Shown: one piece after another, positions 3,581 through 20,927 of the stretch
Position numbering within the stretch: the stretch's first letter is position 1
How the letters are laid out: every line of letters begins with the position of its first letter
From: Vicinamibacteria bacterium
Lineage (GTDB): Bacteria; Acidobacteriota; Vicinamibacteria; Vicinamibacterales; CAVVIG01
DNA length: 58,615 nt
Reading direction: 5' to 3'
Assembly: GCA_041484265.1 (NCBI GenBank)
Contig: JBGPHH010000001.1
Location: forward strand, 1 to 58,615
The notes under the pieces: generated by a model
Database searches by the model: none
Told to the model about the DNA's origin: nothing
The model's input: only the letters and a program-made list of their open reading frames with translations
Made by a program: the position numbers and the translations under genes

Positions 3581-3661
3581 ACGACCACTGAATGAGGCCT
3601 GGAGGTTAGAATAGCCACTCTGGCAGGTCGGACCCTACCGATCTGAGCAATAGGGGAGGGT

Positions 3662-4857: not shown

Positions 4858-5073
4858 ATGGCGAAATCGACGAAGAGAACGACAAGAGTCGTGACCATGC
4901 CGAGGCCCGCATCTGCGCCTCGGATGCAGAGCCCGTCAGCAACGGAGAATGAGATTGCCAGGCGCGCGTTTGAGCTTTACTGCGAGCGAGGCTGTCAAGA
5001 CGGACGGGACGTTGAGGACTGGCTGCAGGCCGAGCACGAACTGCGAACGACGACGAGTTCCACAGCGGCGTAA
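4858..5073 (+). CDS. DUF2934-domain small protein
   Basis: ENEIARRAFELYCERGCQDGRDVEDWLQAEHEL matches the DUF2934 signature (from memory). Confidence 0.7.
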   Translation: MAKSTKRTTRVVTMPRPASAPRMQSPSATENEIARRAFELYCERGCQDGRDVEDWLQAEHELRTTTSSTAA

Positions 5074-5121
5074 TCCGATTTCTGGGGTCCAGTCCTGAAG
5101 CGGGGGTGTCTCCTATTACCC

Positions 5122-5136
5122 CTCACACTGCTTGAC
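5122..5136. repeat. Left target-site duplication CTCACACTGCTTGAC (extendable to 18 nt with the preceding CCC)
   Basis: Identical 15-mer in direct orientation at 19431..19445, each copy immediately outside a terminal inverted repeat. Confidence 0.85.
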
Positions 5137-5172
5137 GGGGATAGCGTACAGGGAGGGGAAAAGTGCTACACC
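5137..5172. repeat. Left terminal inverted repeat core GGGGATAGCGTACAGGGAGGGGAAAAGTGCTACACC; looser similarity continues to ~5345
   Basis: The reverse complement of the right end reads GGGGTATAGCGTACAAGGAGGGGAAAAGTGCTACACC. Subterminal GCGCGC/ACGCAC-rich stretches are shared. Confidence 0.85.
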
Positions 5173-5415
5173 TCGCGCGTGGAGATCGCCTATCCGCGCG
5201 TGCGTGCGTCGTTTGCGTATGCAGAAGTCGCGCGGCGCGCGCGTCACATAGAGCCTGCGCACCCACCTAACACCCTCACACGCGTCAGCTCACACGCACG
5301 CGCGAATGCGAAGTGGCCGCACGCACACCGTTCACGATCTGCGCGCAGGTTGGGGGGGGGCGCACGGAGATCGATCAGGGCGTGTAGTTGGAGTGGTTCG
5401 GCGTTCGCAGCAACG

Positions 5416-6345
5416 TCACTGCGCTGGAATGTCCGTCTGTTCGACGCCGAATTGTAGACGAACTGTGCGGCGTTTGCGATAGACGGGGACAGTCATTCTC
5501 AATCGCGCGTCGAAATAGTCTCGCAGCATCGGTGGGCGCGGTGTCTTCAGATAGCGGTCCGGATTGCCTGCGAGGTCACCCGATGCGACGAGTTCAAGCT
5601 CATCCCTGCGCGTAACGCGTTGGACAAGTGCGGGGATGTGAGTGACGCCGACGTCCCGAAGTGCGTACGCCCTATGACTACCATTGCCGAGAACGAGGCG
5701 GTTCTCGACGCTAAGCACATTGAGAAAGTTCGAGCCATACCCAACGGACAATGCGAGGATGGCGCCGGGGCGGCCGGCTGACTGGAAAGTTTGAACTTGA
5801 GCGGGCTGCAGGAATTGCGCTTCCAGGAAACGGAAATCAGTCGAGTCGGACATAAAAGTGTACATGTTCTGCGCATTCTGCATCGCCGTGAACTGCGGCG
5901 GCTGAGGGTCAAGTAGCGCGAAACCAAAAACAGCCGCCGGCGTTGGGTTTGAGCCGAGGCGCGCCTTAAGTTGTTCGATGAAGGCGAGGTTGATGAACTT
6001 CTGAAAAACGACGAGCCGGTCCAGCTCGACCATCGCGATTTCAGTGGGGACAAAACGGTAGGCCATCTGGAACACAGGATCATTCAGAACTCCGGCGGCC
6101 AAGTGGTTAATGTCGGCCGGCACAGGCACAACCGGGGGATTGTCGGCGGCACCCGCCTCGCTCTTTTCCAGTGTAAGAACGTGGTCGTTCGCAGCCCGCC
6201 AATCCGCCGTGAGTTTTCCGAGGTCAGCTGTCTGACCGTCCACGCTCATTGTGCGAATAAACCCAAGAAGTTCGCCGATCGGCGGCCGGCCGATCAGGAA
6301 GACGTGAGGATCGGAAGCGACTGACGGGGTCAATTGAGTTGGCAT
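5416..6345 (-). CDS. Hypothetical protein (310 aa from ATG at 6345)
   Basis: The coding-like part starts at MPTQLTPSV. The upstream extension of the 387 aa ORF runs into repeat DNA. Contains LGNGSHRAYAL, faintly like the ParB/DGQHR-type motif. Confidence 0.55.
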   Translation of the reverse strand: MPTQLTPSVASDPHVFLIGRPPIGELLGFIRTMSVDGQTADLGKLTADWRAANDHVLTLEKSEAGAADNPPVVPVPADINHLAAGVLNDPVFQMAYRFVPTEIAMVELDRLVVFQKFINLAFIEQLKARLGSNPTPAAVFGFALLDPQPPQFTAMQNAQNMYTFMSDSTDFRFLEAQFLQPAQVQTFQSAGRPGAILALSVGYGSNFLNVLSVENRLVLGNGSHRAYALRDVGVTHIPALVQRVTRRDELELVASGDLAGNPDRYLKTPRPPMLRDYFDARLRMTVPVYRKRRTVRLQFGVEQTDIPAQ

Positions 6346-6438
6346 TTTGTGGTGCTCGGGGAAAATTGGCCTGCTGCCTAACAAGAACCACGCAATCCGA
6401 TGTGCGTGCGAGGCTCGAAGTCTAACGCTGCATTGAGC

Positions 6439-6775
6439 CGGATTCAATTGTGCGGACGCGTGTGCGGCTGTGCGCACAGTGCGAGAAGAAAATGCACGGG
6501 CGGGCGGCGAAATGCACGTTCGTTTCCATGCCCGGCTCACCGCGCGCACGCGCGGACGGGTACAAACAAGAAATCTCACAATTTGTCAGGAATGCAGGAC
6601 TCTCGCACACGTTCCGCGTCGTGAGGGACGGGCGCGCGAAACGCGAACGGCCCACGCGCACACAGCGAGCGATCTAGCGCGCGGAGTGCTACACCCGCGC
6701 GTGCGCGCCCGCAGATCGCGCCCGGTGTGTGTGCGTCGTTCGGCGTTCGCGCGCGCGTTCGCTGAACGCATGTTA
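6439..6775. repeat. Internal copy of the element's subterminal sequences: right-end-like (6439..6684) directly followed by left-end-like (6685..~6775)
   Basis: Shared blocks with the right end: CGGATTCAAT (6439 / 19266), GCGAGAAGA (6481 / 19301), CACGCGCACAC (6653 / 19354). AGTGCTACACC(C)GCGCG at 6685 matches 5162 (same orientation) and 19394 (inverted). Confidence 0.65.
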
Positions 6776-6787
6776 CCGCTCCGCGAT

Positions 6788-8011
6788 TCAGGCTAGTTCG
6801 TTTTGTAGCCTAACTACCTCCTTGCCGAATTCATCCAACACTGAGGGGTCGATACTAATTGTTAGCGTCATTTCAACCACTCGCGGCGTCACGGTTGGTG
6901 GAGCTGCAATCGCGGTTTCGTACGTGTCCCTAATATAAGGACCAAATTCTCGCACCTGCCGTATCAGGTCATCTACCATCTTGCTGACGATTGAACGAAG
7001 GAGGTCATAACGCCCATCAATATTCGCGGCACGCATGCGCGCGGACCAGTGAAGCGCATCCCCGTAGATGTCCGCAATCGTATCGGCGACGAAGATCAGT
7101 CTCTCCGCGTCGCCACTCACTCCCTTGGGGCCGAGCGCTTCTTGAAGCGTCTCGTTCATTAGAGCCGATAGCGCCTTGGCCATTCTCATGGTGTCTGAAA
7201 AACGGGCTCCAAACCAAGCCAATGGCTCCTTCACGTCCTCGCCCAAGCCGAGAGGAATTCCGGTCTCATGCCGCCTCCGTAAACGATGATGCGCGCTCAC
7301 TCCGTCGATCAAGGCGTGCGCGAATAGCCGATATTCCCATCCAGCAGGCTTGTCTAAGGCAATCCGCAAGCTGTCGCCGTGAAGATCTTTCAGCCAGTAT
7401 TGGTCGCCCGCCTGACGGATTCGCTTTTGGAGTGAGAGACCATGACGATGCTGATACGCGAACTGTATCCGCAATGCGTCAATGATGTCGCCCGCGTGCT
7501 TGAACTCTTGCATCCACACTTTGTCCGTTGACCGCACTTGCTCGATAAAATCGAATAGTCTTGGCGTATCTACTCGACTGACGAAGTCAGCGGTCGGATT
7601 CGATTTCCAGATCGGAACTAGCGCGAGTATCCCCTGCTCGATAAAGGCGTAGATGGGAATCCCCTTTAGCCGTGCAGTCAAATACTCCAGATTCGTCACC
7701 GACTTGGACGTCTCGTCATCGATGGTTCCGTATCGCCCGCCGATTACCAAGACGAAAATGTCAGCATCTTGCTCAACACGTTCTCGACAATTGTCGATCG
7801 TGTTGGCGTCAGGACTCAGCGGAAATGACGAGTGCTCCGATAGCAGGGGGCGGTAGCCGAGTTCGTCCTGTAGAAAGCGTCGAAGATCTTCTCTGATCTG
7901 ACGTAGGTCGTAAAATGTCGAGCTGACCATAACGCTGGGTGGATGAGAGCTTTCGTCCATGCAATCCTCGTTTCCCGAATCGTCAACTGTTCTCCCTGAC
8001 GCTGCAAGCAC
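6788..8011 (-). CDS. DUF4062-like N-terminal domain protein with an uncharacterised C-terminal domain (start may be 7960 or 7930)
   Basis: VMVSSTFYDLRQIREDLRRFLQDELGYRPLLSE...ADIFVLVIGGRYGT resembles DUF4062 (from memory). The gene is visibly less GC-rich than its surroundings. Confidence 0.6.
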   Translation of the reverse strand: MLAASGRTVDDSGNEDCMDESSHPPSVMVSSTFYDLRQIREDLRRFLQDELGYRPLLSEHSSFPLSPDANTIDNCRERVEQDADIFVLVIGGRYGTIDDETSKSVTNLEYLTARLKGIPIYAFIEQGILALVPIWKSNPTADFVSRVDTPRLFDFIEQVRSTDKVWMQEFKHAGDIIDALRIQFAYQHRHGLSLQKRIRQAGDQYWLKDLHGDSLRIALDKPAGWEYRLFAHALIDGVSAHHRLRRRHETGIPLGLGEDVKEPLAWFGARFSDTMRMAKALSALMNETLQEALGPKGVSGDAERLIFVADTIADIYGDALHWSARMRAANIDGRYDLLRSIVSKMVDDLIRQVREFGPYIRDTYETAIAAPPTVTPRVVEMTLTISIDPSVLDEFGKEVVRLQNELA

Positions 8012-8212
8012 CCGTGGACTTCGAGCGAACTCGGACGCTTATCCCAGCCGCGTCGCAAGGCACAGCTCCATCGGCCGTTCCCAGTGTCCGCAGTCGGATG
8101 GATAACCCAACCGAAGTTGCTATGGGAGCAGCGCGTACCCTGTGGCCTTCAGCTGTCCAATTCTCGGAAACGTTGAACATCATCTGAAGGCTCGGCCGGA
8201 TGTTCTAGCGAA

Positions 8213-8869
8213 CTATTTCTTCGCCGGTTCCTTCAGAGTCTTTGGGGCAAAATCTTCGCTGCTTATGACAGGTGGGCCTTCGTAGGATTGATCGACGATC
8301 TGGATCGGAATGGCTCGTTGTTTGTTCGTGAAGACCTTCGCTAACGCCTTCCTGATAGTCAACAAGTCGTCCTCAAGCTCTCCCATCGCTACGGGCATGT
8401 AACTATTCCGCCGGATGGCAACCTTGTCAAAACTGAATTCACCTACACACTTCCCCATCTCGTGTAGAAGTGTGTAGAAGAGTTCGTCCCGGTTGGCGAA
8501 ATGAACCGGTTGCGCAGAGGCATCTGGTGGGGTGTTGTTGAGCGAGTCGAGATATTCCTTCCAAACGTCCAAAACTTTCTTGTCGGCATCATTTTTCGGG
8601 TCAAAAAGCAGCTCAATCGTGTTCAGAGCCTCTACGTGCCGAGGAGATAAACGACTTCCTCTGGTCGCCATCAATTCACGGAACAGATGTGTTCTTCGAG
8701 CCTTGGCTTGCCGTCTCCGCTCAAGGAACTCCTGAATCTGAACAGCTAGAATAGGGCCGAGTACGATGGCAATGATGGTCAGGACGCCAAGCCACATCGT
8801 TGCGTCCAATCCTAGAAATGTTAAGGGCGCAGCAGCAGAGGTCGAAGGCGTGGTGGGAGGCGCCTGCAT
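8213..8869 (-). CDS. Membrane-anchored hypothetical protein (single N-terminal TM)
   Basis: TM segment MWLGVLTIIAIVLGPILAV followed by a charged soluble domain. The start lies 4 nt downstream of the cas1-like stop. Lower GC. Confidence 0.6.
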   Translation of the reverse strand: MQAPPTTPSTSAAAPLTFLGLDATMWLGVLTIIAIVLGPILAVQIQEFLERRRQAKARRTHLFRELMATRGSRLSPRHVEALNTIELLFDPKNDADKKVLDVWKEYLDSLNNTPPDASAQPVHFANRDELFYTLLHEMGKCVGEFSFDKVAIRRNSYMPVAMGELEDDLLTIRKALAKVFTNKQRAIPIQIVDQSYEGPPVISSEDFAPKTLKEPAKK

Positions 8870-8872
8870 CGA

Positions 8873-10492
8873 CTAGATTCTAGCACTCGGTGACTGGCGC
8901 GTACTTCGCCGAGCGCTATGCTGCCGGTTCGCTCGCTTGACACGTAAGTGGTTCAGCGAGATACCCACGAGTCGTGCCAGCGTCAACCAATGTCGGGGAT
9001 GCGGCCGGCGCTGCCCCGTGCGAATGAGCTTCGCGTACGGCCACGAAACGCCGAGCGCTTCTGCAAGCGCCGAGGTCATGACGCTCGTGAGGCGCGGTCG
9101 AATCTCGTTCACGTATACCTGTTCTGTTATCCACGCCGGCTGATCTGACGCCTTCCACGCGCGCAGAGCGTCCGCCTGTCGCCGCCGAGTCGCGGACCGG
9201 CGCGCCTGTGCCTCTGGCCGCTGCGTCGCGATCCATGCCTGAGGCATGCCAGCACGGATTCTGTCGGCTGCAACAACCGGCACGCAGCCTCGGCAGTAAG
9301 TCCCGTGGTGGAGAGCCGCACCGCACCGCCGACAGATCCGGGGCGGGCGTGCGGGAGGTGTGATGGGAAGCACGAAGGAACCTTTCACTTCTCGCCGGCG
9401 GCGTTGGGTGAGCCGTGTGGCCAACCGCACCGACCGTTTATATCCTCGCACCGTCGACCACAACGCGTCGGTCACCCGCTCGGCTACGGGCGCAACCACG
9501 CGTCCCCACGCCGGTGCGGTTTCCGCCAGCGTGCGCGCCAGCTCTGCCATCAGGCGACATGACCCATTGCGCTGCTCGAAGAATCCGTCGCGGCGGAGCG
9601 GTTGACGGGTGATCCAATCGAGCAGGTAGGCGTCCACGTGTGGGCGGGCGGCTTCCATGAGATCGAGCGCCAGACTGTCCCTGGCATCGGTATCCACATG
9701 AAGCAATCCGAGACCGGGATCGAGACCGAGGGCCACGGCCGCGAGCCGGGCTTCAGATTCCAAGACCGCGTAGAGGTAGTTCAGCATGGCGTTGGCGGGA
9801 TTGACGGCGACGCGCGAGGAGCCTGATACAGGTGAACGGCGTGGACCGAATGTCCGCCAGTGCTCAGGGACCCGCCGAAGATCGCTGGTGGGAAACAGCA
9901 CGGGCACGTCCCGCCACGCCGACCAATAGGCGAGGGCGCCTTGGGCCTCGATGAGCCGAACGGCGCTCGGACTGTCGGCGGTGCGGAGCGCTTCGCGCGC
10001 CGACTCAATGATGTCGACGACGGCGGCCTGTCCGAGCCGTGCACGCGCCAACCGCGCTTGGCCGGCGAGCTTCTGATCGATCAGGTCTCGGATAATCGGA
10101 AGCGCTACACCGGTGTGATGGGCCAACGCCTGCGCGCGTCGCAGGCGCGCATCCAAGGGACCCACCGGGCCGGTCGCGACCAGCACTGACCCGCCGCGAT
10201 CAAGCATGACGAACGCCGCTTGCTGGTCCGCGAGCCAGCGGATCGCCGCCAGCGAAATCATGCCATCGTTGCCGACGACGACGAGCCGCCGCAAGCCGTG
10301 GCCGACACGAGCAAAACGCGCACGTTGCCGATCGGACGCGATGCCGTCCTCGATGGCGAGGTGCCCGCGCTCAACGCGCACCTTGATCCCGTAGCCGATC
10401 AAGGTCACGACGCCGTGGCGCGGAAGAAGCGGCGCGTCAGCGCGGAATTTGAGAGACGGAGAGTGTTGGTATAGCGTGAGCGCAGCTGCCAT
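8873..10492 (-). CDS. cas1: Cas1-family integrase (casposase-like) with C-terminal Zn-ribbon and HTH extension
   Basis: Diagnostic Cas1 core NPANAMLNYLYAVLESEARLAAVALGLDPGLGLLHVDTDARDSLALDLMEAARPHVD (E...H...E/D). N-terminal beta-domain GYGIKVRVERGHLAIEDG. C-terminal CRRCGAALHHGTYCRGC plus ALAEALGVSWPYAKLIRTG. Confidence 0.9.
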   Translation of the reverse strand: MAAALTLYQHSPSLKFRADAPLLPRHGVVTLIGYGIKVRVERGHLAIEDGIASDRQRARFARVGHGLRRLVVVGNDGMISLAAIRWLADQQAAFVMLDRGGSVLVATGPVGPLDARLRRAQALAHHTGVALPIIRDLIDQKLAGQARLARARLGQAAVVDIIESAREALRTADSPSAVRLIEAQGALAYWSAWRDVPVLFPTSDLRRVPEHWRTFGPRRSPVSGSSRVAVNPANAMLNYLYAVLESEARLAAVALGLDPGLGLLHVDTDARDSLALDLMEAARPHVDAYLLDWITRQPLRRDGFFEQRNGSCRLMAELARTLAETAPAWGRVVAPVAERVTDALWSTVRGYKRSVRLATRLTQRRRREVKGSFVLPITPPARPPRICRRCGAALHHGTYCRGCVPVVAADRIRAGMPQAWIATQRPEAQARRSATRRRQADALRAWKASDQPAWITEQVYVNEIRPRLTSVMTSALAEALGVSWPYAKLIRTGQRRPHPRHWLTLARLVGISLNHLRVKRANRQHSARRSTRQSPSARI

Positions 10493-10569
10493 AGGAACTA
10501 ATCCTTCCTGTGACGGTTAGGGTCTGTCGTCTGCTGATAACAGGCGGCAGGCCCGATTTCGTGTTACGT

Positions 10570-11826
10570 TCAGGGCTGGCTGAGAAGATTCACCTCGACG
10601 GATGTCGCTAGTGCGCGCTGCCGTTCCAGCAGATCGCGCTGCGCCATTTCTGCACGCACGATGTCTTCTTGGGTGCGAGGAACCGCGCACTTCTTCCAAA
10701 ATGTCGCGACAATGCGATAGGGCACGGCGGCGCGATCCTCCACCTCAACATCGGTGTCGTTGATGGCTTCACAGAGACAGAGCCAATCCCGTTCGAGCTG
10801 AGTTCGGACATGCTCGACCTGCAGGGCCTGAATCGTTGCCGGCAACGCCTGGAGCAAGGCGTCCTTCGTGTTGCGCCCCACCTGGGACCACGTGTCGTCA
10901 ATGAGTTCGAAGATCTGATACGTCGAGAACGGCCATCCTGAACTCGGCTCTTTGGCGCACTGCTGAAAGCCATAAGACGCGCTCACGTCGGGCAAGCCTG
11001 CCATCGCCCCGGCGAGATTCGGTGGATTCCGTGCGTGTTTTCTCGGTGACGTGATAAAGGCCAACAGCTCGTGCTGCACGTAGTACGCGACTTGATCGTC
11101 GCGTGTGGCCTCAAGCTCAAGACATTGCGGTCCAAGTCGATCCCACGCCAGTTGACGCTCGTCACGAACCGTCGTGCGGCGGCCGTGCTCGGTCCGCCAT
11201 GTCTCCTTGTCCGTGGATGCGCCATCCAACGCCCCCTGTGCGAGAGCGACCTGATCCTTCGCCGTTTGCAACTCGGACTGAAGGACTGATCGGCGTGTCA
11301 GCAGGTCGTTCAAGGCGCCTGTCGTCTTCTGAATGTCGGACCGGGACGCTTCTTGTGTGGTCTCTCTCAGGAATGGCGTCAGTCGATACCACCCTGGCAT
11401 CATGCGGGCCAACGGGCTCAGCGCCGCACGCAACGCCTCGATCGTTGTGGCACGTGGCAATGCCCAACCAACATCTCCCCATCCTTGGGCCAGGAGCCCC
11501 AGGAACTGCTCGCGATGATTCAACAACGTCTGTGCGTGAATCTCCTCGGGTCGGCCCCCGCGTGTCTTCGCTCGTTCCACAAATCCCTGAGGCTCACGAT
11601 GGCTCGCCTGCCTTTTGCGGCCACGCCCCCGTCGATACGTGCGAGCTTTCACCTCTCGCACAAGTTTCACATCGCGCGGCGACCAGAGCCGGACGCTACG
11701 CCCGTTGCGGATCACCGGCTTCGGCGCCCTCACTCGCTGCGTACGAATCCATTCTTGGAGCGTCACGCGGTCGATATGTACCTTCTGGGCAACCTCCTCG
11801 GTTGTGAGCCGTCGATCCGAAGCCAT
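10570..11826 (-). CDS. Excisionase/MerR-like HTH domain protein with a large uncharacterised C-terminal region
   Basis: N-terminus LTTEEVAQKVHIDRVTLQEWIRTQRV...RLWSPRDVKLV is HTH_17/excisionase-like. The remaining ~340 aa is unrecognised. Confidence 0.6.
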   Translation of the reverse strand: MASDRRLTTEEVAQKVHIDRVTLQEWIRTQRVRAPKPVIRNGRSVRLWSPRDVKLVREVKARTYRRGRGRKRQASHREPQGFVERAKTRGGRPEEIHAQTLLNHREQFLGLLAQGWGDVGWALPRATTIEALRAALSPLARMMPGWYRLTPFLRETTQEASRSDIQKTTGALNDLLTRRSVLQSELQTAKDQVALAQGALDGASTDKETWRTEHGRRTTVRDERQLAWDRLGPQCLELEATRDDQVAYYVQHELLAFITSPRKHARNPPNLAGAMAGLPDVSASYGFQQCAKEPSSGWPFSTYQIFELIDDTWSQVGRNTKDALLQALPATIQALQVEHVRTQLERDWLCLCEAINDTDVEVEDRAAVPYRIVATFWKKCAVPRTQEDIVRAEMAQRDLLERQRALATSVEVNLLSQP

Positions 11827-12086
11827 ATATGTAGTCTATTTTAGCAGAGTGCCAAGGCAGGCCATGAAGTCCACAGTCTCTCTATGTCAAGTGCCTAGAA
11901 ATACGGTTCGCTTTCTCTACGCTACATTAAAACTATGGGTCGGCCAGGCCTTGACTACATGAAAACTAGTACGCGATTCCTCAGCGTCCATCGCGCATTA
12001 CATGGAATTCGTCACCGGGCCTTCGATCGACCGCTCTCCAAGACCCAGGCCCTTCCGGAACGCGCGGTTATTGTCTTGTCAGAATC

Positions 12087-12662
12087 ATGCGACACAGGAC
12101 TCGTCAGGCCCACGCCCGCAAATCGACGCCGCGTCCGGCACGTCAGCGCCGAGCGCGTCGGCGTCACACCGTGCGCCAAGTCCACGCCAGTCCGCGTACG
12201 GCCAGAGCCGCGAACACCCGTGAGCGCGCGCTGAAGGCCTTGCGCCACATGCGACGGGGCGCGTCGCTGTCTACCGCCAGCCGCTCGGTCCAGATGAAGC
12301 CAGGCACCCTGCTGAAATACGCCGGTGGGGCCATCTACCAGGACAAGCCGGGCGGTCGCTTTCGCGCGACGCCGAGCGACCGACTGCGGCGGACATTGCA
12401 GGTGCCGACCGCGGAAGGTCGGCTCACCGTCCCGGTCACGGGCATTCGAGCGGCTCGCCGGTTCTCCGCGTACGAGAACGCCGTCGCCCATTTCCTGAGA
12501 ACCGGTGATGTGTCGAAGCTGGCACCGTTCACGGGCAAACGATTCCGGGTCGGGAAGCGGTCGATCGCGTTCCTCACGGACCCCACTATGCTGCGCACGC
12601 TAGCGGAAGCGGACCTGCTGCGGCTCGACCACCTCTATGCCTCGCTGGTCAGCCCCCTGTGA
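12087..12662 (+). CDS. Hypothetical protein with a highly basic N-terminus (start uncertain)
   Basis: ORF whose stop overlaps the HNH start (GTGA). The Arg-rich N-terminal ~50 aa may be over-extension. Possible HTH at ALKALRHMRRGASLSTASRSV. Confidence 0.45.
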   Translation: MRHRTRQAHARKSTPRPARQRRARRRHTVRQVHASPRTARAANTRERALKALRHMRRGASLSTASRSVQMKPGTLLKYAGGAIYQDKPGGRFRATPSDRLRRTLQVPTAEGRLTVPVTGIRAARRFSAYENAVAHFLRTGDVSKLAPFTGKRFRVGKRSIAFLTDPTMLRTLAEADLLRLDHLYASLVSPL

Positions 12663-12973
12663 CCATTGAGCACCTCGCTCTCTCGGCGCCCGCCAACGCC
12701 CCATGTTGCTTGTTCTGCGGAAGCACGCAGGACATCGAGTGGCATCACGTGGGCGGGCGACACCATGTCGCGTGGTTCGTGGTTCCGCTCTGTCGAACCC
12801 ACCATGAAGAGTTGACGCTGGCCCTTCAACGCGCTCCTGTGGACATGTCCTCTACGCCCGATCCGCAGGAACGCCGAAGACGCGCTCGTCGGGCTACGCT
12901 AGTGTTCCTATGGCTGCTGGACGAGGAACACCTCCCGCCCCCCAAGACATCTTTCTCCGGGCCCACACGGTAG
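12659..12973 (+). CDS. HNH-like endonuclease (small, Zn-finger type)
   Basis: CLFCGSTQDIEWHHVGGRHH...VPLCRTHHEEL gives CxxC ... HH ... CxxHH spacing typical of HNH/His-Me nucleases. Confidence 0.65.
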   Translation: MTIEHLALSAPANAPCCLFCGSTQDIEWHHVGGRHHVAWFVVPLCRTHHEELTLALQRAPVDMSSTPDPQERRRRARRATLVFLWLLDEEHLPPPKTSFSGPTR

Positions 12974-13638
12974 GACCTAAGAAGCGCCCGCCACGCCAGC
13001 GGAAAGACCCACGCTGGCCGAACGCCGTCCTCGTCTTCGACACTGAAACCACGCTCGACACCGAGCAAGCCCTCACGATCGGCGCCTATCGGCGCTGTCG
13101 GCTCGTGGACGGTACGTACGTGTGCGCCGAAGAGGGCGTATTCCACGCCGACACGATCGACGGCCGCCAGCGCGCGGTGCTCGATGCGTACATGCGTGAG
13201 GAGACCGCCGACATCGGCATCACGTCCTTTCCCCCAAGGCTGAAGCTGTCGCGCCACTCGCGCGCCGAGTTCGTCAAGCGTGTGTTCTGGACGGCGGTCC
13301 AGCGGGGCGAGATGGTCGTCGGATTCAATCTGCCCTTCGATCTATCGCGTCTCGCTGTGCAATGGCCCACAGGGCATCACGGGAGCTGGTCCTTGGTGCT
13401 CTCCCTCCGGCGTTCTCGCAAGACGAAGCGGCTTGAAGCCAATCCGTACCGGCCACGCGTGCGCGTGACCGCGACGGACAGTCAGTCGGCCTTTATCACC
13501 GCCACCCTCCCGTATCTCCCAGGGGAATGGGCCGAGGGGCGGTTTCTCGATCTGCACACCCTCGCGAAAGCGCTGTATGACGAGTCCTCTCGTTGGATAG
13601 CCTGCATGAGCGACTGTTTGGCGTCCCAGGCAAAGTAG
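12910..13638 (+). CDS. polB: Family B DNA polymerase, N-terminal 3'-5' exonuclease part (frame 1, ends prematurely)
   Basis: Exo I VLVFDTETTLD and Exo II VVGFNLPFDLSRL. The frame breaks near 13588..13592. Confidence 0.8.
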   Translation: MAAGRGTPPAPQDIFLRAHTVGPKKRPPRQRKDPRWPNAVLVFDTETTLDTEQALTIGAYRRCRLVDGTYVCAEEGVFHADTIDGRQRAVLDAYMREETADIGITSFPPRLKLSRHSRAEFVKRVFWTAVQRGEMVVGFNLPFDLSRLAVQWPTGHHGSWSLVLSLRRSRKTKRLEANPYRPRVRVTATDSQSAFITATLPYLPGEWAEGRFLDLHTLAKALYDESSRWIACMSDCLASQAK

Positions 13639-15800
13639 AGGACTACCAGCCCACGGGTCGCATCTCCGCGGAGGAACTCACGTACTGCCGTCAGGACGTC
13701 CGCGCCACGACCGCGGTCCTCAACGAGTTGAAGCGGGAGTTCGATCGACATCCCTTGCCGAAGCTCTATCCGGACAAGGCCTACTCACCGGCATCCATCG
13801 CGAAAGCGTACCTCGATGCGATGGGCGTCATGCCGCCCAAGCAGAAGTTCAACGTGTCCGATCGCGTGCTCGGGATTGCGATGCAGGCGTACTACGGCGG
13901 ACGCGCCGAATGCCGCATCCGTCGGGTGCCGGTGCCGATCGTGCACACCGATTTCACGAGTCAATATCCCACGGTAAACGCGCTGCTCGACAACTGGAAG
14001 GTGTTGACGGCCCAGCGGCTCCGCGTGGAAGACGCCACGGCCGAGGTCCGAGCGCTCGTCAAGACGGTGACGCTGGACGACACGTTCAGCCAGGACTTCT
14101 GGAAAGACCTGTCGTTCTTTGCGCGCGTGCGACCCGATCGGGACATCTTCCCCGTCCGCACGGTCTACAACGGCCAAACGCAGAATATCGGGATCAATCG
14201 ACTGACGTCAGAACAGCCGCTCTGGTTCGCCGGGCCGGATGTCATCGCCGCCACGCTATTAGGGGGTAAGGCTCCACACATCGAAGAGGCTATTCGTCTA
14301 GTGCCGGAGGGCACGCAGGAAGGCCTGCACCCGACCAACGTGCGCGGCATGGTCGCAATCGATCCGCACACACAGGACTTCTTCCGTCACCTGGTCAAGC
14401 AACGAAAACAGCATGCAGCGGATGAATCGCTCGCGGCCTTTCTCAAGACGCTGGCAAATGCAGGGAGCTATGGCCTGTTCGTGGAACTCAACCCGGAAAA
14501 GCCATCGAAACCTGTCCCCCTGACGGTGTATTCCGGCGACACATCCTTTGTGCTCCCACGCTCACCTCTCGTCGAACAACCAGGGCCCTGGTATTTTCCA
14601 CCGATTGCGGCCCTCATCACGGCAGGTGGGCGACTCCTGCTGGCGATGCTCGAAGGCTGCGTCGAGAAGGCTGGCGGCACGTATCTCTTCTGTGACACCG
14701 ATTCGCTCTGCATCGTCGCGTCCGCGCATGAACAGCTCGTCTCGTGTCCCGGTGGCTCTCGTCAGTGGGAGAGACCGGACGCCATCAAGGCCCTTTCCCG
14801 AGCACAGGTGGTCGAGATCGCGAACCGGTTTACCGCGCTGAACCCCTACGAGACCACACACGTCCCTGGGTCGATTCTCCGGATTGTGGAGATCAACAAT
14901 GACGCGGCCGGTCGACCGCGACATTTGTTCGGGTACGCGATTTCCGCGAAGCGATACGCGCTGTATGAGCACGCGGGCGACGCTGTGGCGATCATCGACC
15001 CGAAGGCGCACGGGCTCGGCTACCTGTATCCGCCGAAAGCGATAGAGAAGGACGATGAGGACGCGCTGGACTGGACCTTCGAGGCGTGGGAGTGGTTGGT
15101 GCGCGACGCCTTGGACTTGCCCGCCACGGACCCGACGTGGCTCCAGCTCCCCGCGATGATGCGTGTGGTGCTGAGCACACCGCTGGTCCTGGAGCGGCTG
15201 AACCGTCGCACCCGTCCGTACAACTTTCTCTTCTGCCCGCTCATCATGGGCTATCCGGCAGGTGTCGATCCGAAACGATTCACGCTGATCGCCCCCTTCA
15301 CGAAACGACGCGAGCGGTGGCTCGACTCCCGATGTATCAACGTGTACGACGGCACGCCGTACAGCCTGGCGCTGCAACAGACCGAGAAACTCGACAAGGT
15401 GATTCCGCAGACGTTCGGCTCCATCCTGCGGCGGTATCGGGACCATCCCGAGGCGAAGTCGCTCGCACCCGATGGCACCCCGTGCACGGCTGACACGCAG
15501 GGCCTCCTGAAACGGGCATCGGTCATCGCGGGAGCACATCGGTATGTGGGCAAAGAGACCGATCGGCGCTGGGTGCACGGGGAACACCTGAGTCTGTTGG
15601 AATCGCGACTCATCGCCTACGAGGCCGCTGGTGGGATGGTGGTGGCCGATGCGGAAATCCGGCGACAACTCGACGCGTTGGGGATGCGCGAAGCGATGCG
15701 ACGGGGCGTGAGCCAGCACACGCAGGAGAAGATCCTGGATGGTCAGCCCGTCCGCCGCGCGACCCTGCTACGGGTCATCGCAGCGCTGAACCGCGACTGA
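13593..15800 (+). CDS. polB: Family B DNA polymerase, Exo III + polymerase part (frame 3)
   Basis: Exo III LTYCRQDVRAT, Pol A VHTDFTSQYPTV, Pol B KTLANAGSYGLF, Pol C YLFCDTDSLCI, KxY SAKRYALY. Confidence 0.85.
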   Translation: MDSLHERLFGVPGKVEDYQPTGRISAEELTYCRQDVRATTAVLNELKREFDRHPLPKLYPDKAYSPASIAKAYLDAMGVMPPKQKFNVSDRVLGIAMQAYYGGRAECRIRRVPVPIVHTDFTSQYPTVNALLDNWKVLTAQRLRVEDATAEVRALVKTVTLDDTFSQDFWKDLSFFARVRPDRDIFPVRTVYNGQTQNIGINRLTSEQPLWFAGPDVIAATLLGGKAPHIEEAIRLVPEGTQEGLHPTNVRGMVAIDPHTQDFFRHLVKQRKQHAADESLAAFLKTLANAGSYGLFVELNPEKPSKPVPLTVYSGDTSFVLPRSPLVEQPGPWYFPPIAALITAGGRLLLAMLEGCVEKAGGTYLFCDTDSLCIVASAHEQLVSCPGGSRQWERPDAIKALSRAQVVEIANRFTALNPYETTHVPGSILRIVEINNDAAGRPRHLFGYAISAKRYALYEHAGDAVAIIDPKAHGLGYLYPPKAIEKDDEDALDWTFEAWEWLVRDALDLPATDPTWLQLPAMMRVVLSTPLVLERLNRRTRPYNFLFCPLIMGYPAGVDPKRFTLIAPFTKRRERWLDSRCINVYDGTPYSLALQQTEKLDKVIPQTFGSILRRYRDHPEAKSLAPDGTPCTADTQGLLKRASVIAGAHRYVGKETDRRWVHGEHLSLLESRLIAYEAAGGMVVADAEIRRQLDALGMREAMRRGVSQHTQEKILDGQPVRRATLLRVIAALNRD

Positions 15801-15940
15801 GGTTACGATAGTCGGACTCAATAATTTCTCATCAGGCGCTGGGATCACGGAAGACGTAGAGCGGATAGTTGCCCTGGCTCCTGAGCAGCGGCTATCCGCG
15901 AGGGTTGCTCTAGGGTGGTGAACAAGCGACAGGAGAAGAC

Positions 15941-16342
15941 ATGAGATCTGCTGCGTTGCTCTTTGCTCTCTTCAGCGTCGTGGTCGGGGTGATAGGCCTC
16001 GTCGTACCCGACAGCCTGATGGCGATGATGAGACAGTCCATGATTACGCCGGCCGGACTCTACGCATTCCTGGCCCTTCGCGTCGCTGTGGGGCTCCTGA
16101 TGATTCTGGTTGCCCCGACCTCTCGTGCGCCGAAGACCTTGCGCGCGTTTGGGGCCGTGGTGGCGCTGCAGGGACTCGCGCTGCCGTTTGTCGGGATCGA
16201 GCGCACGCAACTGGTTCTCGAATGGGAGACGAGCCTGGGAACCGCAGTCCTGCGCGGCGGGGCTGTGCTGGCCTTGGCCGTCGGCAGTTTCATCGCGTTT
16301 GCTGTTACACCTGTCCGGCGCCCTACGGGCGGAGCAAAGTAG
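15941..16342 (+). CDS. Small multi-pass membrane protein (hypothetical)
   Basis: Four hydrophobic segments (e.g. LLFALFSVVVGVIGLVV and GLLMILVAP). 133 aa. Confidence 0.55.
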   Translation: MRSAALLFALFSVVVGVIGLVVPDSLMAMMRQSMITPAGLYAFLALRVAVGLLMILVAPTSRAPKTLRAFGAVVALQGLALPFVGIERTQLVLEWETSLGTAVLRGGAVLALAVGSFIAFAVTPVRRPTGGAK

Positions 16343-16531
16343 TCCAGGAATTCTCTACGGTGCCAGGTCATTCGAGCGCATACTTTAGGGGCCTTACGCC
16401 TTTGGCCCTCTGGCGCGAGCGGTGCCGAGTCCATGAGGGCGTGTAGAACGAAGGAATAGGGTCATGCACCGCGTAGTTCGCCAGCTTTCACCCGACTCGC
16501 CCGTCACCGCGCTCGCGGAATAGCGCGTCCA

Positions 16532-19201
16532 GTGGCATTCGTTGCTGGCGCGCGTCTCGGTCCTTATGAGATTGTCGGGCCGCTTGGTGCGGGCGGCATG
16601 GGCGAGGTCTACAAAGCCCGCGACACACGCCTGGATCGCACGGTCGCCATTAAGGTCCTACCCGCCCAGCTCGCGTCCGATCCGCAGTTCCGCGAACGCT
16701 TCGAGCGCGAAGCGCGTGCCGTCGCAGCGCTGAATCATCCGCACATCTGCACGCTGCACGACATTGGTACGCAGGATGGCGTCCAGTTTCTGGTCATGGA
16801 GTATCTCGACGGGGAGACGCTAGCGGACCGCCTCAAGAAAGGACCGCTGCCCCTCGGTCAGGCTCTCCAATACGCCATCCAGATGGCCAGTGCCCTCGAC
16901 GCCGCGCATCGCGTGGGGATCACGCACCGCGATCTGAAGCCGGGCAATGTGATGGTGACGAAAGGTGGCACCAAGCTGCTCGATTTCGGACTTGCAAAGA
17001 CAGCTCCCGGTCGGGGCCAGCCGGTTCTCACGGACGCGCCGACGATGAGCACACCGCTGACCGGACACGGCACCGTTCTCGGCACGTTGCAGTACATGGC
17101 ACCCGAGCAGCTGGAAGGGCAGAGTCTCGATGGTCGGACAGACATCTTTGCCTTTGGCGCTGTTCTTTATGAGATGGTCACCGGCAAGAAGGCATTCGAG
17201 CGTAAGACGCACGCGAGCCTGATTGGAGCGATCCTGAAGGACTCACCCCCGGCGATCGCTACGCTCCAACCGCTGACTCCGCCGGCGCTCGACCGCGTCG
17301 TCAATACCTGCTTGGCGAAAGATCCGGATGACCGCTGGCAAACCGCGCGCGATTTACTAAGGGAGCTGAAGTGGATTGCGGAGGGTGCGCAAGCGGCCTT
17401 CGCCCCAACCATGACGGCTGCAGCCGTCCCATCACGGATGCATGGACGCGAACGTGTGGCGTGGATTGGTGCCATCGTCGCGTTCCTTGCAGCCAGTGCC
17501 TTTGCGCTCATCGCATTTGGGCACGCAGCTCCGCTGCCGCCCATCGTGCGCTTCGATGTCAGCACCGCTCCGACGTCGGACTCCACATCCTTTGCCTTGT
17601 CCAGCGACGGGAGTCAGTTGGTGTTTGTTGCTACCGCCGACGGCGTCTCGAAGCTCTGGCTAAGGTCGCTCGATCGAACGACCGCGCAGCCGCTCGCGGG
17701 AACGGATGGCGCAACGTACCCGTTCTGGGCACCAAGCAGTTCCTCTATTGGATTCTTCGCCAACAGCAAGCTGAAACGACTCGATCTGGCGGGTGGTCTG
17801 CCGCAGACCCTGGCCGACGCGCCGCTCGGACGTGGCGGCACGTGGAGTCAGGACGACGTCATCGTGTTTGCACCATCGGTTGCGAATCCGTTGATGCGCG
17901 TTGCGGCAACCGGCGGGGTGTCGACGCCAGTGACACGACTCGACCAAGGGTATTTGAGCAATCGGTCTCCGCAGTTCCTTCCAGACGGTCGACAATTTAT
18001 CTTCTCGGCGACGAATGGCGGCAACCAACCGAGAACGGTGTACTTAGCCTCTCTCGACGGTGGTCTTCCCAAGCGCTTGTTTCAAGGCGGCGACGCGGAT
18101 TCGGTCTATGCCCAGCCTGGGTATCTTCTCACGACCGAGCAGGGCCTCTTGATCGCTCGACGTGTGATTCTCCCGAGCGGCGATGTCGGCGATCCGATCA
18201 CAATCGAACAGCCAGTCGGGCGGGACGGAAATGGTCACGGCGCTTTCAGCGTATCCGGAGCCGGCGTGCTGGCGCACCGGGCCGCACCTGTCGATCGTCG
18301 ACAACTGGTGTGGATCGATCGAACCGGGAAGCGGCTTGGCACAGTCGGTCCTGTGGATGACGGCTCTCTTCTCAATCCTGCCCTCGCGCCAGATCAACGG
18401 CGTGTTGCGGTGAGTCGCACCGTTGAGAACAACTCGGACGTGTGGATCCTGGATAGGACTCGTGATACCCGCACACGGATCACCGTAGCCCCAGTTTTTG
18501 AGGACATGCCCGTCTGGTCGCCGGACAGCACGCGTCTGATCTTTAGACGAGGCGTGGATCTGTACGAAAGACTCGTGAGCGGCGGGTCTGAACAGAGGGT
18601 GTTCAGCCCAGAGCGCGCACCGAATGCACACGACTGGTCGCTTGATGGCCAGTTCCTCCTCTACTCCGTACTGGGTGAAAAGACCGGCAACGACTTATGG
18701 GTGCTTCCATTGACCGGCGACCACAAGCCGTTTGCCATCGCCAACACTTCCTCCATCGAGCGAAACGGACAGTTCTCGCCAGACGTACGCTGGGTTGCCT
18801 ACGACTCGAACGAATCGGGTCGTTTCGAGGTGTACGTGCAGGCATTTCCCGGTCCGGGATGGAAGGGACTGATCTCCACGGCCGGAGGGAGTTCACCCCG
18901 TTGGCGCCGTGATGGCAAGGAGTTGTTCTATCTCGCGTCAGACGGCACGATGATGGCTGTACCCGTGCGTGCTGCGGTCGACAATCAATCGCTCGAAGTG
19001 GGCACAATCACGCCGTTGTTCCGGGCACCGATTGTCTTCGGCGGACTTGCTCCTCCGCCTGGCAATCCCCGTCAGCAATATGACGTGGCGGCGGATGGCC
19101 TACGATTTCTGATCAACGTCACGGTCGACGATGTCACGGTGCCGCCGATCACCATCGTCCTCAACTGGCAATCAACGCTCGGAGCGCGCGAAAAGCGATG
19201 A
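16532..19201 (+). CDS. Ser/Thr protein kinase fused via a TM segment to a TolB-like (WD40-like/PD40) beta-propeller
   Basis: GAGGMGEVYKARD, VAIKVL, HRDLKPGNVMV, DFGLAK, APEQ. TM WIGAIVAFLAASAFALIAF. C-terminal repeats such as SPDGRQFIF, SPDSTRLIF, SPDVRWVAY. Confidence 0.9.
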   Translation: MAFVAGARLGPYEIVGPLGAGGMGEVYKARDTRLDRTVAIKVLPAQLASDPQFRERFEREARAVAALNHPHICTLHDIGTQDGVQFLVMEYLDGETLADRLKKGPLPLGQALQYAIQMASALDAAHRVGITHRDLKPGNVMVTKGGTKLLDFGLAKTAPGRGQPVLTDAPTMSTPLTGHGTVLGTLQYMAPEQLEGQSLDGRTDIFAFGAVLYEMVTGKKAFERKTHASLIGAILKDSPPAIATLQPLTPPALDRVVNTCLAKDPDDRWQTARDLLRELKWIAEGAQAAFAPTMTAAAVPSRMHGRERVAWIGAIVAFLAASAFALIAFGHAAPLPPIVRFDVSTAPTSDSTSFALSSDGSQLVFVATADGVSKLWLRSLDRTTAQPLAGTDGATYPFWAPSSSSIGFFANSKLKRLDLAGGLPQTLADAPLGRGGTWSQDDVIVFAPSVANPLMRVAATGGVSTPVTRLDQGYLSNRSPQFLPDGRQFIFSATNGGNQPRTVYLASLDGGLPKRLFQGGDADSVYAQPGYLLTTEQGLLIARRVILPSGDVGDPITIEQPVGRDGNGHGAFSVSGAGVLAHRAAPVDRRQLVWIDRTGKRLGTVGPVDDGSLLNPALAPDQRRVAVSRTVENNSDVWILDRTRDTRTRITVAPVFEDMPVWSPDSTRLIFRRGVDLYERLVSGGSEQRVFSPERAPNAHDWSLDGQFLLYSVLGEKTGNDLWVLPLTGDHKPFAIANTSSIERNGQFSPDVRWVAYDSNESGRFEVYVQAFPGPGWKGLISTAGGSSPRWRRDGKELFYLASDGTMMAVPVRAAVDNQSLEVGTITPLFRAPIVFGGLAPPPGNPRQQYDVAADGLRFLINVTVDDVTVPPITIVLNWQSTLGAREKR

Positions 19202-19393
19202 ACATCCGTCCGGATGTTCGACCCTGGACGGCGGGATTGAAGACGTAGCCGCTCGCGCGGTGGGTCGGATTCAATCTGCGTGCGGCCATGCCCGCACCAC
19301 GCGAGAAGACGCTCCGCGCGTTAGCGAACATGCGCGCGCAAACGGGAATGGCGCACGCGCACACGGGGGGTCGAACTGAGCGCGCAGGACGCG

Positions 19394-19430
19394 GGTGTAG
19401 CACTTTTCCCCTCCTTGTACGCTATACCCC
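19394..19430. repeat. Right terminal inverted repeat core
   Basis: GGTGTAGCACTTTTCCCCTCCTTGTACGCTATACCCC is the reverse complement of the left TIR, with 1 indel and 1 mismatch. Confidence 0.85.
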
Positions 19431-19445
19431 CTCACACTGCTTGAC
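19431..19445. repeat. Right target-site duplication CTCACACTGCTTGAC
   Basis: Identical to 5122..5136, in direct orientation. Confidence 0.85.
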
Positions 19446-19469
19446 ACATGTCTTAGCGGGGTCGATACT
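19441..19469 (+). promoter_or_regulatory. Putative sigma70-like promoter of the Tat-ADH gene: TTGACA - 17 nt - GATACT
   Basis: TTGACA at 19441..19446 (its first 5 nt lie inside the TSD) and GATACT at 19464..19469. GGAGGAGGG Shine-Dalgarno ~9 nt before the ATG at 19500. Confidence 0.35.
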
Positions 19470-19499
19470 CCTCCCCATCCCCGGAGGAGGGAATAAGTT

Positions 19500-20927
19500 A
19501 TGTCTATCAATCCATACGATGACGAATCAGGCGTAGAGCGACCGGGGCAGCCGGTTTCCCGGAGAGACTTGTTCAAGACCGGTGCGGCCGCCGTCGTCGG
19601 CGGCGCAGCCTCGGTCCTCGGTGGCGGCACGGCGTTCGCTCAGGCGCCGGCGGTGCAGACAAGCAGCACCGGCAAGAACATGGCGGGCACGAAGTTTCGC
19701 GCCTACGTCCGTCACGCCGACTTCAAGAGCACGACCGTCGAGACGGTGACGCTGCTGCCGATTCAGCCGCGGCAAGTCGTCATCCGCCTGGAAGCCGCGC
19801 AGGCGTGCTACACGATCGTCAATGCGCTCGCCCCAGTACCGCCGGCCCCGCCCGCGCCACCCGCACCGGGTGCGCCGCCCGCGGCGCCGCCGAATCCAGC
19901 TGCCCGCAACGCCGCGATTGTCGGCCACGGCGGCGTCGGCATCGTCGAGCAGGTCGGCTCGATGGTCAAGCGCGTCGAGGTCGGCGACCGGGTCATCGTG
20001 CCGGTCACCGCGCAGTGCGGCGAATGCTACAACTGCCTCCACGGCAAGGCCGACCGGTGCCAGTCGGGTGTCAATCGCCCGCTGCTGCCGATGGCGACGC
20101 TCGCCGATGGTTCGCCCGTCAACGGCAACCTGGGCGCGTTCGCCGAGCTGATGGTCGCGTGGGAAGAGCAGACGGTGCCGATTTTCAGCAAGCACAACGC
20201 CGTTGAGCTCTCGCTGCTGTCGTGCGTCGCGACAACAGGCTTGGGCATGGCGATGATGCGGGTACCGGTCGAGGCCGGAAGCCACGTCGTCATTTTCGGC
20301 GCAGGCCCCGTGGGCCTCGCCGCGATCCAGGGCGCGCGGATCATGGCCGCGTCGAAGATCATCGCGGTCGAGCCGATTGCGTATCGCCGTGCGCTGGCCA
20401 CGAAGGTCGGGGCGACGGCCGTTCTCGATCCGAACGTCGACGCCGCCAATCTCGTGCAGAAGCTCAGAACGATGACGACGGGAGAAACGGACCGCGCGTT
20501 TGCCGGCGGCAGAGGGCCGGCGGCCGACGGCCCCGACTTCATCATCGAAGCGGTCGGCGGAGATCGCTTCCCGCCGAAGACGGCCGAGAAGAGCCCGGAT
20601 CCGACCGGCGCGGGAGTGCTCCAGCAGGCGTGGCAACTCTGTCCGCCCGGCGGGTGGATCAGAACGTGCGGGGTCGGTCATCCCGCTGGCACCACCGTCA
20701 CGTTCCCGGCAGGCGCGTGGTCGAACGGTACCAAGCAGCAGGCCGGCGGCAATTTCGCCGGCGTCAACACCAAGCGCGACATCCCGATGTTCGTCCGCTT
20801 GATCGAAGCGGGCCAGTTCGACGCGAAGTCGATGGTGGGCAAGACCTACAAGATCGACCAGGCGCGTGAGGCGCTGCAGGCGGCGGCCGACCGCACGTCG
20901 ATCTCATCGGTGATGACCTTCACGTAA
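19500..20927 (+). CDS. Zn-dependent alcohol dehydrogenase family protein with a twin-arginine (Tat) signal and a Pro/Ala-rich insertion
   Basis: SRRDLFKTGAAAVVGGAASVLGGGTAFAQA (Tat-like RR + h-region + AxA). GHGGVGIVEQVG, structural-Zn CGECYNCLHGKADRC, Rossmann FGAGPVGLAAIQG. Insertion PVPPAPPAPPAPGAPPAAPPNPAA. Confidence 0.85.
   Translation: MSINPYDDESGVERPGQPVSRRDLFKTGAAAVVGGAASVLGGGTAFAQAPAVQTSSTGKNMAGTKFRAYVRHADFKSTTVETVTLLPIQPRQVVIRLEAAQACYTIVNALAPVPPAPPAPPAPGAPPAAPPNPAARNAAIVGHGGVGIVEQVGSMVKRVEVGDRVIVPVTAQCGECYNCLHGKADRCQSGVNRPLLPMATLADGSPVNGNLGAFAELMVAWEEQTVPIFSKHNAVELSLLSCVATTGLGMAMMRVPVEAGSHVVIFGAGPVGLAAIQGARIMAASKIIAVEPIAYRRALATKVGATAVLDPNVDAANLVQKLRTMTTGETDRAFAGGRGPAADGPDFIIEAVGGDRFPPKTAEKSPDPTGAGVLQQAWQLCPPGGWIRTCGVGHPAGTTVTFPAGAWSNGTKQQAGGNFAGVNTKRDIPMFVRLIEAGQFDAKSMVGKTYKIDQAREALQAAADRTSISSVMTFT

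Follow-up and report, generated by a model that had tools for sequence, protein, structure and literature searches.

The first 58,615 nt of contig JBGPHH010000001.1 (forward strand; assembly GCA_041484265.1) from a Vicinamibacteria bacterium, hereafter the window, contain at positions 5137–19430 an element of ~14.3 kb, which is very probably a family-3-type casposon inserted at a promoter, and for which a mechanism of integration is proposed below. Casposons are defined by the combination of terminal inverted repeats (TIRs), a target site duplication (TSD) of 14–15 nt, the Cas1 integrase and a family B DNA polymerase (PolB) without an array of short palindromic repeats that are clustered and regularly interspaced (CRISPR), and it is because of this combination that the element is read as a casposon. 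The casposases of the clade to which it belongs probably select σ70 promoters as their address, cutting exactly where the −35 box ends on its 3′ side and again 14 nt upstream, with successive insertions stacking on the promoter-distal side. The element ends and their surroundings are placed in the window as follows.

5122..5136, plus strand: left TSD copy, CTCACACTGCTTGAC, the 3′ end of which is a −35-like TTGAC touching the left TIR.
5137..5172, plus strand: left TIR, GGGGATAGCGTACAGGGAGGGGAAAAGTGCTACACC, adjoining the left TSD copy.
19394..19430 (alternatively to 19429), minus strand: right TIR, adjoining the right TSD copy.
19431..19445, plus strand: right TSD copy, CTCACACTGCTTGAC, touching the right TIR.
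19441..19469, plus strand: σ70-type promoter with TTGACA at 19441–19446, a 17-nt spacer and GATACT at 19464–19469.
19500..20927, plus strand: host zinc-type alcohol dehydrogenase-like gene (ADH), outside the element and behind the targeted promoter, its start preceded by GGAGG.

The inverted repeats of 36 nt, which the initial annotation of this DNA had proposed at 5137–5172 and 19394–19430, were confirmed: the two arms are 94% complementary in a gapless alignment, with a mismatch at 2/36 positions, and a 22-nt core of the repeat has two matches in the window, both at the element ends, while shuffles predict 0.00. The TIR consensus of the family reads GGG(G/A)TA...GGGAAAAGTGC. The direct flanking repeat also stands, since CTCACACTGCTTGAC occurs in two exact copies in the whole window, each directly abutting one TIR; its length may be either 14 or 15 nt, given the ...TTACCC/C of the left flank and the 14-nt duplications of relatives. 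The insertion is intergenic, with the stop of a DUF2934 gene at 5073 on one side and the ADH start at 19500 on the other.

The promoter rule was derived from relatives. The related set L011–L089 comprises 79 loci, and 30 elements, including that of the window, were resolved with TIRs and an exact 14-nt TSD of their own (12.4–17.5 kb, median 14.4 kb). The TSD ends in TTGAC, with that end abutting the TIR, in 28/30 of them, and in 25 of these 28 a TAnnnT hexamer (TATACT, TACACT, TAAGAT, TAGACT) lies 18–19 nt beyond TTGAC, in the host flank past the other TSD copy, where the background rate of TAnnnT at that spacing is 3.3% (binomial P=2e-34). Apart from a CCC lying just upstream of the TSD, the 80-nt stretch examined shows no other conserved position. 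The composite pattern CCC-N9-TTGAC-N18/19-TAnnnT, searched on both strands of the related set, gave 44 matches in 2.88 Mb, all of which are preceded by a casposon TIR end, with 19 loci lying outside the set from which the rule was derived; the placement of the junction relative to the −35 box is invariant in 44/44. Such a pattern may become a cheap detector of the clade and of solo or relic ends.

The genes downstream of the sites point away from the element, start 25–300 nt later and differ among genomes: valS (5 loci), rpmH-rnpA (4), thrS, tig, nuoB, and genes for thiolase, rhomboid proteases, secreted proteins and a response regulator were found there. With respect to the promoter, the elements lie in the two orientations at a ratio of 17:13, as symmetric ends would predict. 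In the window a generic promoter scan of 19300–19600, which made its call independently of the family rule, returned one site only, the promoter listed above (10/12 matches, 0.0 expected). Since the TSD carries the −35 box, insertion duplicates this box and a complete core promoter is left before the host gene. No −10 follows the left TSD copy, and a hybrid promoter reading from this copy into the TIR was dismissed, as inspection revealed no −10-like hexamer at the right spacing. A tRNA or non-coding RNA as the target was dismissed as well: the scan of 29 related loci yielded only a single tRNA and that of six loci no Rfam match, and neither a tRNA nor an Rfam family was matched anywhere in the window.

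The same sites appear to have been used repeatedly and with a polarity. Immediately upstream of the TSD, i.e., promoter-distally, the terminal repeat of another casposon is present in 9/30 sites (z of at least 5), and these relic TIRs are often of a different TIR type (e.g., L025, L028, and L052), while none of the 30 sites has a TIR on the promoter-proximal side. As the relics are promoter-distal only, it follows that new insertions would adjoin the flank that carries the −10, displacing older copies or relics outward. Such relics have probably left the CCC enrichment as their last remnant, since CCC is missing from sites that have no relic-like sequence. In the window one candidate was noted.

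5106..5121, no strand assigned: possible remnant of an earlier casposon's terminal repeat, TGTCTCCTATTACCC (compare the ends of relatives, ...TGTCTCCTATCCC), z=2 against window shuffles, which is not significant.

Tandem use of one target was reported for casposons of Methanosarcina; a polarity with respect to a promoter is, judged by the accessible literature, new.

The integrase and the polymerase are the two proteins on which the assignment to casposons depends.

8873..10492, minus strand: casposase of 539 aa, with a Cas1 domain (33–324), a C4 zinc ribbon and a C-terminal helix-turn-helix (HTH).
12910..15800, plus strand: family B DNA polymerase of the casposon "CDTDS" type, in frame 1 to 13587 and in frame 3 from there.

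That the first of these is a Cas1 homologue with a catalytic signature, as originally claimed, was borne out by the profile check (PF01867, E=1.8e-38; TIGR00287 exceeds its cut-off) and by the catalytic-type residues E247, H265, D277, and E280, which are invariant across the family alignment. The zinc ribbon cysteines are C387, C390, C400, and C403, and the C-terminus gives weak matches to HTH_3 (sub-threshold) and to zinc ribbons, with nothing sigma-like. In BLASTP comparisons with references from the Cas1 alignment that accompanies Krupovic et al. 2014 (PMC4046053), the protein is 47% identical to the AceAut-C1 casposase (E=1e-72) and 34% to that of NitAL212-C1 (E=2e-51), and its identity to the family-2 casposase of M. 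mazei and to the A. fulgidus Cas1/CRISPR Cas1 amounts to 23–25%. These pairwise identities suggest that it groups with the family-3 casposases, and the element is, as judged from sequence, a putative new member of that family. An AlphaFold2 model of the protein (predicted local distance difference test, pLDDT, 80) has as its best fold match the M. mazei casposase 6OPM, slightly above CRISPR Cas1s. A plasmid search with Cas1 returned partial CRISPR Cas1 matches only, and a search of viral contigs a single distant match.

The PolB motifs were all found: Exo I (VFDTETT), Exo II (FNLPFDLS), and Exo III (YCRQDV), as well as Pol A (DFTSQYP), Pol B (KTLANAGSYG), and Pol C (FCDTDS). The CDTDS of motif C, which is invariant in 18 PolB homologues and places the protein in the family 2/3 type and not with the protein-primed polymerases of family 1, names the PolB group that contains the A. 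boonei casposon polymerase (PMC7544198). Pfam matches are weak (DNA_pol_B_2 in the exonuclease part), and a PolB profile searched against PDB gave marginal matches to motif C of Pol alpha only. The PolB of relatives is usually a single open reading frame (ORF) of ~950–1020 aa: of 72 loci, 47 have it intact, 15 carry a frameshift, and in 10 it is partial or disrupted in some other way.

In size the clade far exceeds the handful of bacterial casposons that have been published. A search with Cas1 gave 5295 clusters at 90% identity, the best being 57–71% identical and ~515 aa long, and a HMMER scan of 50%-identity representatives gave 7469 Cas1 hits; the top 150 of these are mostly ~500–540 aa and reach through the zinc ribbon and HTH, about one quarter being shorter and apparently truncated. 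The view that casposons have few bacterial representatives reflects the literature and does not hold for a clade with over 5000 protein clusters. In species-representative genomes a relative is encoded by 317 stretches, the closest being from Vicinamibacterales. The expectation of a bacterial casposon in an Acidobacteria-like host was sound: the best 80 of the 317 all come from metagenome-assembled genomes (MAGs) of Acidobacteriota (Vicinamibacterales, Terriglobia, Acidiferrales, Bryobacterales), except one MAG labelled Micrarchaeota. As to mobility, ~50 elements of the clade lie at many different loci, each with its own TSD. The exceptional MAG, labelled "Candidatus Micrarchaeota archaeon," holds a 56% identical casposase (L061, CAVXKJ010000003.1), and its archaeal label probably results from mis-binned DNA and not from an archaeal host. 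On one Bryobacterales contig (CAVUUB010000007.1) two casposase/PolB cores, L044 and L048, lie ~20 kb apart in opposite orientation. A cultured Acidobacteriaceae strain (Tunturiibacter gelidoferens/Edaphobacter lichenicola; GCA_014201335.1) carries a 13.9-kb copy, L091, at JACHEB010000004.1 188683–202542, with 34-nt TIRs and a 14-nt TSD; its Cas1 is in two parts of 315 and 210 aa, and its cargo includes genes for two NACHT NTPases.

By analogy with the enzymes of A. boonei and M. mazei, an oligomer of the casposase would join the 3′-OH of each TIR to target strands 14–15 bp apart, repair of the gaps would give the flanking duplication, and the element would presumably be copied by its own PolB. 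One transfer would take place on the bottom strand directly 3′ of TTGAC (~−30/−31) and the other on the top strand 14 nt upstream (~−44/−45). In this way the −35 box would be duplicated and the copy beside the −10 would keep the host promoter intact, which in the window is TTGACA-17-GATACT before the gene at 19500. Candidates for reading the promoter are the zinc ribbon or HTH of the casposase, the 418-aa HTH protein and the small core protein of the element (both listed below), and the RNA polymerase holoenzyme. We infer that the choice of a promoter is made at integration. Such target selection would be one that has not been described for any Cas1-family integrase, and promoter-directed integration is rated here as a new variant of the known casposon mechanism.

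Several findings speak against parts of this reading, and they are weighed here together with the explanations that compete with it. As to the promoter, the −10 of the window is GATACT, which deviates from TAnnnT; the rule has exceptions in L052 (TTGTC, with the −10 present), L086, and the cultured-strain copy L091 (TSD GGGCCTTTGCGGCA); and the TSD of NitAL212-C1 is without TTGAC, so that the rule may be specific to the clade. One may ask if the association with promoters results from selection, the casposase reading a short motif (e.g., TTGAC) and only promoter insertions surviving. Coding insertions would be purged, and an insertion that leaves the promoter intact by duplication would be nearly neutral, but TTGAC is accompanied by TAnnnT at 18–19 nt in 6% of cases in ORF-free DNA and 1.5% in ORF-covered DNA, vs ~90% at casposon sites. 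Survival of random intergenic insertions therefore cannot explain the pattern, and with the junction fixed relative to the −35 box in all pattern matches, this explanation is considered improbable. It is possible, though we are doubtful, that the target is chosen via a promoter-bound RNA polymerase holoenzyme or sigma factor (by tethering, or through bent or melted DNA) and not by direct read-out of the sequence. The two conserved blocks correspond to the σ70 −35 and −10 at the optimal 17–18-nt spacing, with the rest of the 80-nt site unconserved, the strand-transfer points would bracket the region contacted by sigma region 4, and it is established that IHF-bent leaders guide Cas1-Cas2 in type I-E (cited in PMC6614799). 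However, the casposase carries a zinc ribbon and HTH of its own and two further DNA-binding candidates are encoded by the element, the A. boonei casposase reads its leader motif directly, and no sigma-like fold was found in the small core protein, whose AlphaFold2 model (pLDDT 71) gave no fold match.

The remaining points concern the copy in the window and its identity. A 1-nt frameshift near 13587 breaks PolB after Exo II and before Exo III; the initial annotation was right about the presence of all Exo and Pol motifs, which are nevertheless split over two frames. Alignments with homologues switch frame at YDES/LSLDSL, consistent with the loss of one C from a CCC run (TCC/CTC). The sole 100% match in the protein collection is a truncated 735-aa product, no intact allele was found, and no second contig spanning 13587 was found. 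The window copy may thus be currently non-autonomous, unless the frameshift is an assembly error. The exact junction of the reconstructed empty site, GTGTCTCCTATTACCCCTCACACTGCTTGACACATGTCTTAGCGGGGTCGATACT, was unmatched in genome and metagenome contigs, so the search for an empty site in related genomes and metagenomes that had been suggested at the outset yielded none; the promoter-only pattern also had no match in the metagenome contigs, a collection evidently without the source sample. Both flanking host proteins were found only at filled sites, in three metagenome samples. It is a real possibility, although we lean against it, that this casposon is dead or non-autonomous, with a real frameshift and an insertion that is old and fixed in the population, not recent. 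The position of the frameshift, its occurrence in 15/72 related loci, the mismatches between the TIR arms and the three independent samples with identical junctions and no empty allele all favour it, whereas a single 1-nt loss in a CCC run, with no other stop in 2.9 kb of PolB, is what an assembly indel would look like, Cas1 and all other core ORFs are intact, the TSD is perfect, and there is no independent assembly across the site. The original description of the element as complete is uncertain, PolB being frameshifted in the assembly, and so is that of a fairly recent insertion, given the differing TIR arms, the filled site in three samples and the missing empty site. Finally, in public annotation the casposase is called "CRISPR-associated endonuclease Cas1," and by sequence alone its top PDB match is a CRISPR Cas1. 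That it is a remnant of CRISPR adaptation, or that Cas1 and PolB are passengers of another island (e.g., one with a tyrosine recombinase and att repeats), is nonetheless extremely unlikely and contradicted by the data. As initially stated, there are no CRISPR-type spaced repeats in the 58.6-kb window and no Cas2 among the ORFs of the element, the remaining window having been scanned in part only; no cas genes were found in ten large ORFs scanned outside the element; no domain of a recombinase or transposase of another class is present in any element ORF (Pfam, NCBIfam); inverted terminal repeats with a 14–15-nt duplication recur in dozens of relatives; and Cas1 is far nearer to family-3 casposases than to any CRISPR Cas1.

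The gene order of the element is divergent, as is that of the core in relatives: the 418-aa HTH protein, cas1 and then three cargo genes are encoded on the minus strand, and the small protein, the HNH-like protein, PolB and further cargo on the plus strand.

5416..6579, minus strand: cargo of unknown function, a 387-aa ORF (309 aa in another assembly) without a Pfam, NCBIfam or PADLOC match.
6788..8011, minus strand: DUF4062 cargo, TIR-like NADase (the protein domain, not the repeat); PF13271, E=3e-19.
8213..8869, minus strand: DUF6680 cargo; PF20385, E=6e-46.
10570..11826, minus strand: core gene directly upstream of cas1, 418 aa, with an N-terminal HTH_17/MerR-like helix-turn-helix (sub-threshold).
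12087..12662, plus strand: small core protein, 137–191 aa, annotated start near 12249; tblastn matches in 61/80 sources.
12659..12973, plus strand: HNH-like zinc-finger protein, with sub-threshold Pfam matches only (DUF968, RecA_dep_nuc).
15941..16342, plus strand: cargo, small membrane protein of 133 aa.
16532..19201, plus strand: cargo, fusion of a Ser/Thr protein kinase with a PD40/TolB-like beta-propeller (Pfam, NCBIfam).

Homologues of the 418-aa core protein occupy the same position in at least 14 loci, and the HNH-like pattern CxxC...HHxGGxxH...CxxxHH is kept in 38 loci, so the HNH-like and HTH proteins reported initially were found again, the latter with HTH_17 and HTH_3 below the Pfam threshold. 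Among the cargo, the product of 5416..6579 is 70% identical to a homologue that L088 carries downstream of Cas1. The DUF4062 protein continues in a C-terminal region of ~290 aa without a Pfam match, and PADLOC 2023 has no model for it; a second casposon (L050) also holds a DUF4062 gene in the same slot. A DUF4062 core with a variable C-terminal region is the composition of the single-gene NADase anti-phage systems Swarozyc, Evangelion, and NIR (three 2026 preprints), and by analogy this cargo is a candidate single-gene anti-phage defence. For DUF6680 no homologue was found in the 79 related loci. The guanine plus cytosine content is 54% across the DUF4062/DUF6680 cargo (window 7000–9000) vs 60–67% elsewhere, which fits a recent foreign acquisition. 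The kinase was considered as a PD-T4-6 defence protein and rejected: its PADLOC match is that of a generic Hanks kinase, and such host kinases are common in the phylum. In relatives the cargo between core and TIRs includes a reverse transcriptase, a Dam-type methyltransferase with PD-(D/E)xK, HEPN_AbiU2 with HATPase, nSTAND3, two NACHT NTPases and nested insertion sequence (IS) elements; the L012 casposon, for instance, contains nested IS1595- and IS4-like transposase genes.

The DNA of the window outside the element looks like an ordinary acidobacterial chromosome (e.g., 34594–39195 and 42813–45191), with host genes there for a 1533-aa NHL/HYR repeat protein, MacB/FtsX permeases, a TonB-type outer-membrane protein and TPR proteins. 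Far from the casposon, at 833–884, there is a near-perfect heptamer array, TAGGGGT/TAGGGGC, of ~7.4 copies. The independent assemblies of the three metagenome samples (L001, L002, L006–L010) break inside window positions 10500–14350, i.e., from the cas1 start to mid-PolB, a pattern suggesting that those communities hold several related copies of the casposon core, at which assembly collapses or breaks.

In the literature casposons are described as rare and mostly archaeal; the few bacterial ones, of which six to eight are listed, are placed "in intergenic regions," and the published targets of family 3 are described merely as "intergenic." No paper linking casposons with Acidobacteriota or with promoters was found in the literature searched, in which subscription journals were largely uncovered, so that an earlier description is possible; one group mentions an unpublished casposon survey. 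An abundant and diverse lineage of bacterial casposons in Acidobacteriota, a dominant phylum of soils, implies that many soil "cas1" counts may be of transposons and not of CRISPR systems. These elements also appear as vehicles of defence genes (DUF4062, STAND/NACHT, HEPN, reverse transcriptase). A sharply defined core-promoter site gives a handle on how a Cas1-family integrase chooses its DNA, and it bears on the long-standing model in which the CRISPR leader-repeat architecture descended from a casposon target site. An integrase that would place 12–17 kb beside promoters without destroying them is, moreover, a candidate tool. For experiments the copy in the cultured strain (GCA_014201335.1) is imperfect, with its Cas1 split and its TSD off the promoter rule.

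Precise and recurrent insertion beside essential genes and not within them is known from other elements, namely Tn7 at attTn7, Ty3 and Ty1 at Pol III genes and Tf1 at Pol II promoters. There too successive elements pile up at one site; the likeness is functional, and these elements differ in using unrelated DDE integrases. To our knowledge, no bacterial transposon has the −35/−10 core promoter as its address.

Nearer to the element are the family-3 casposons, and its layout, which had been thought to correspond to none known, has precedents in two of them. AceAut-C1 (PMC4046053) likewise has a zinc-binding domain and HTH both at the C-terminus of Cas1, a 15-nt TSD, an intergenic target, and HNH and HTH genes; it differs in its host phylum and in being 20 kb long with 602-nt TIRs, vs 14.3 kb and 36-nt TIRs in the window. 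NitAL212-C1, from Nitrosomonas sp. AL212, resembles the element in TIR, TSD and size, with a 36-nt TIR starting GGGGTAT, a 14-nt TSD and 14,414 bp, and it is intergenic too. Its zinc-binding domain is N-terminal, however, and its TSD, AGCCGGTACTGCCC, without a terminal TTGAC, gives no sign of −35 targeting. With family 2 (A. boonei, M. mazei; 6OPM) the element shares the Cas1-fold integrase, the 14–15-nt TSD and a PolB of the CDTDS group, and in that family, too, a "leader" motif in the flank and the bases at the leader-TSD border set the site preference and one target is re-used in tandem. In contrast, the hosts of family 2 are archaeal, its targets are tRNA 3′ ends or other intergenic sites and not promoters, and the identity in fold alignments is 21–23%. 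Pipolins (PMC11551731) are also integrative elements that encode PolB and carry variable defence cargo, but they have tyrosine recombinases, att direct repeats and a primer-independent PolB, unlike the window element with its inverted repeats and no recombinase domain.

A further parallel is with the leader-proximal acquisition of spacers by CRISPR Cas1-Cas2. In both cases a homologous integrase performs a staggered integration that duplicates a segment of fixed length, a flank with a promoter signal defines the site, and the newest insert lies beside this flank with the older units farther away. The casposon differs in being without Cas2, array and spacers, and its inserted unit is a 12–17-kb transposon; furthermore, the promoter of a CRISPR leader reads into the array, whereas the promoter at a casposon site reads away from the insert, into the host gene. 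If the proposed mechanism is true, the arrangement at these sites mirrors leader-proximal spacer acquisition, and it may show the coupling of a Cas1 integrase to a promoter-containing "leader."

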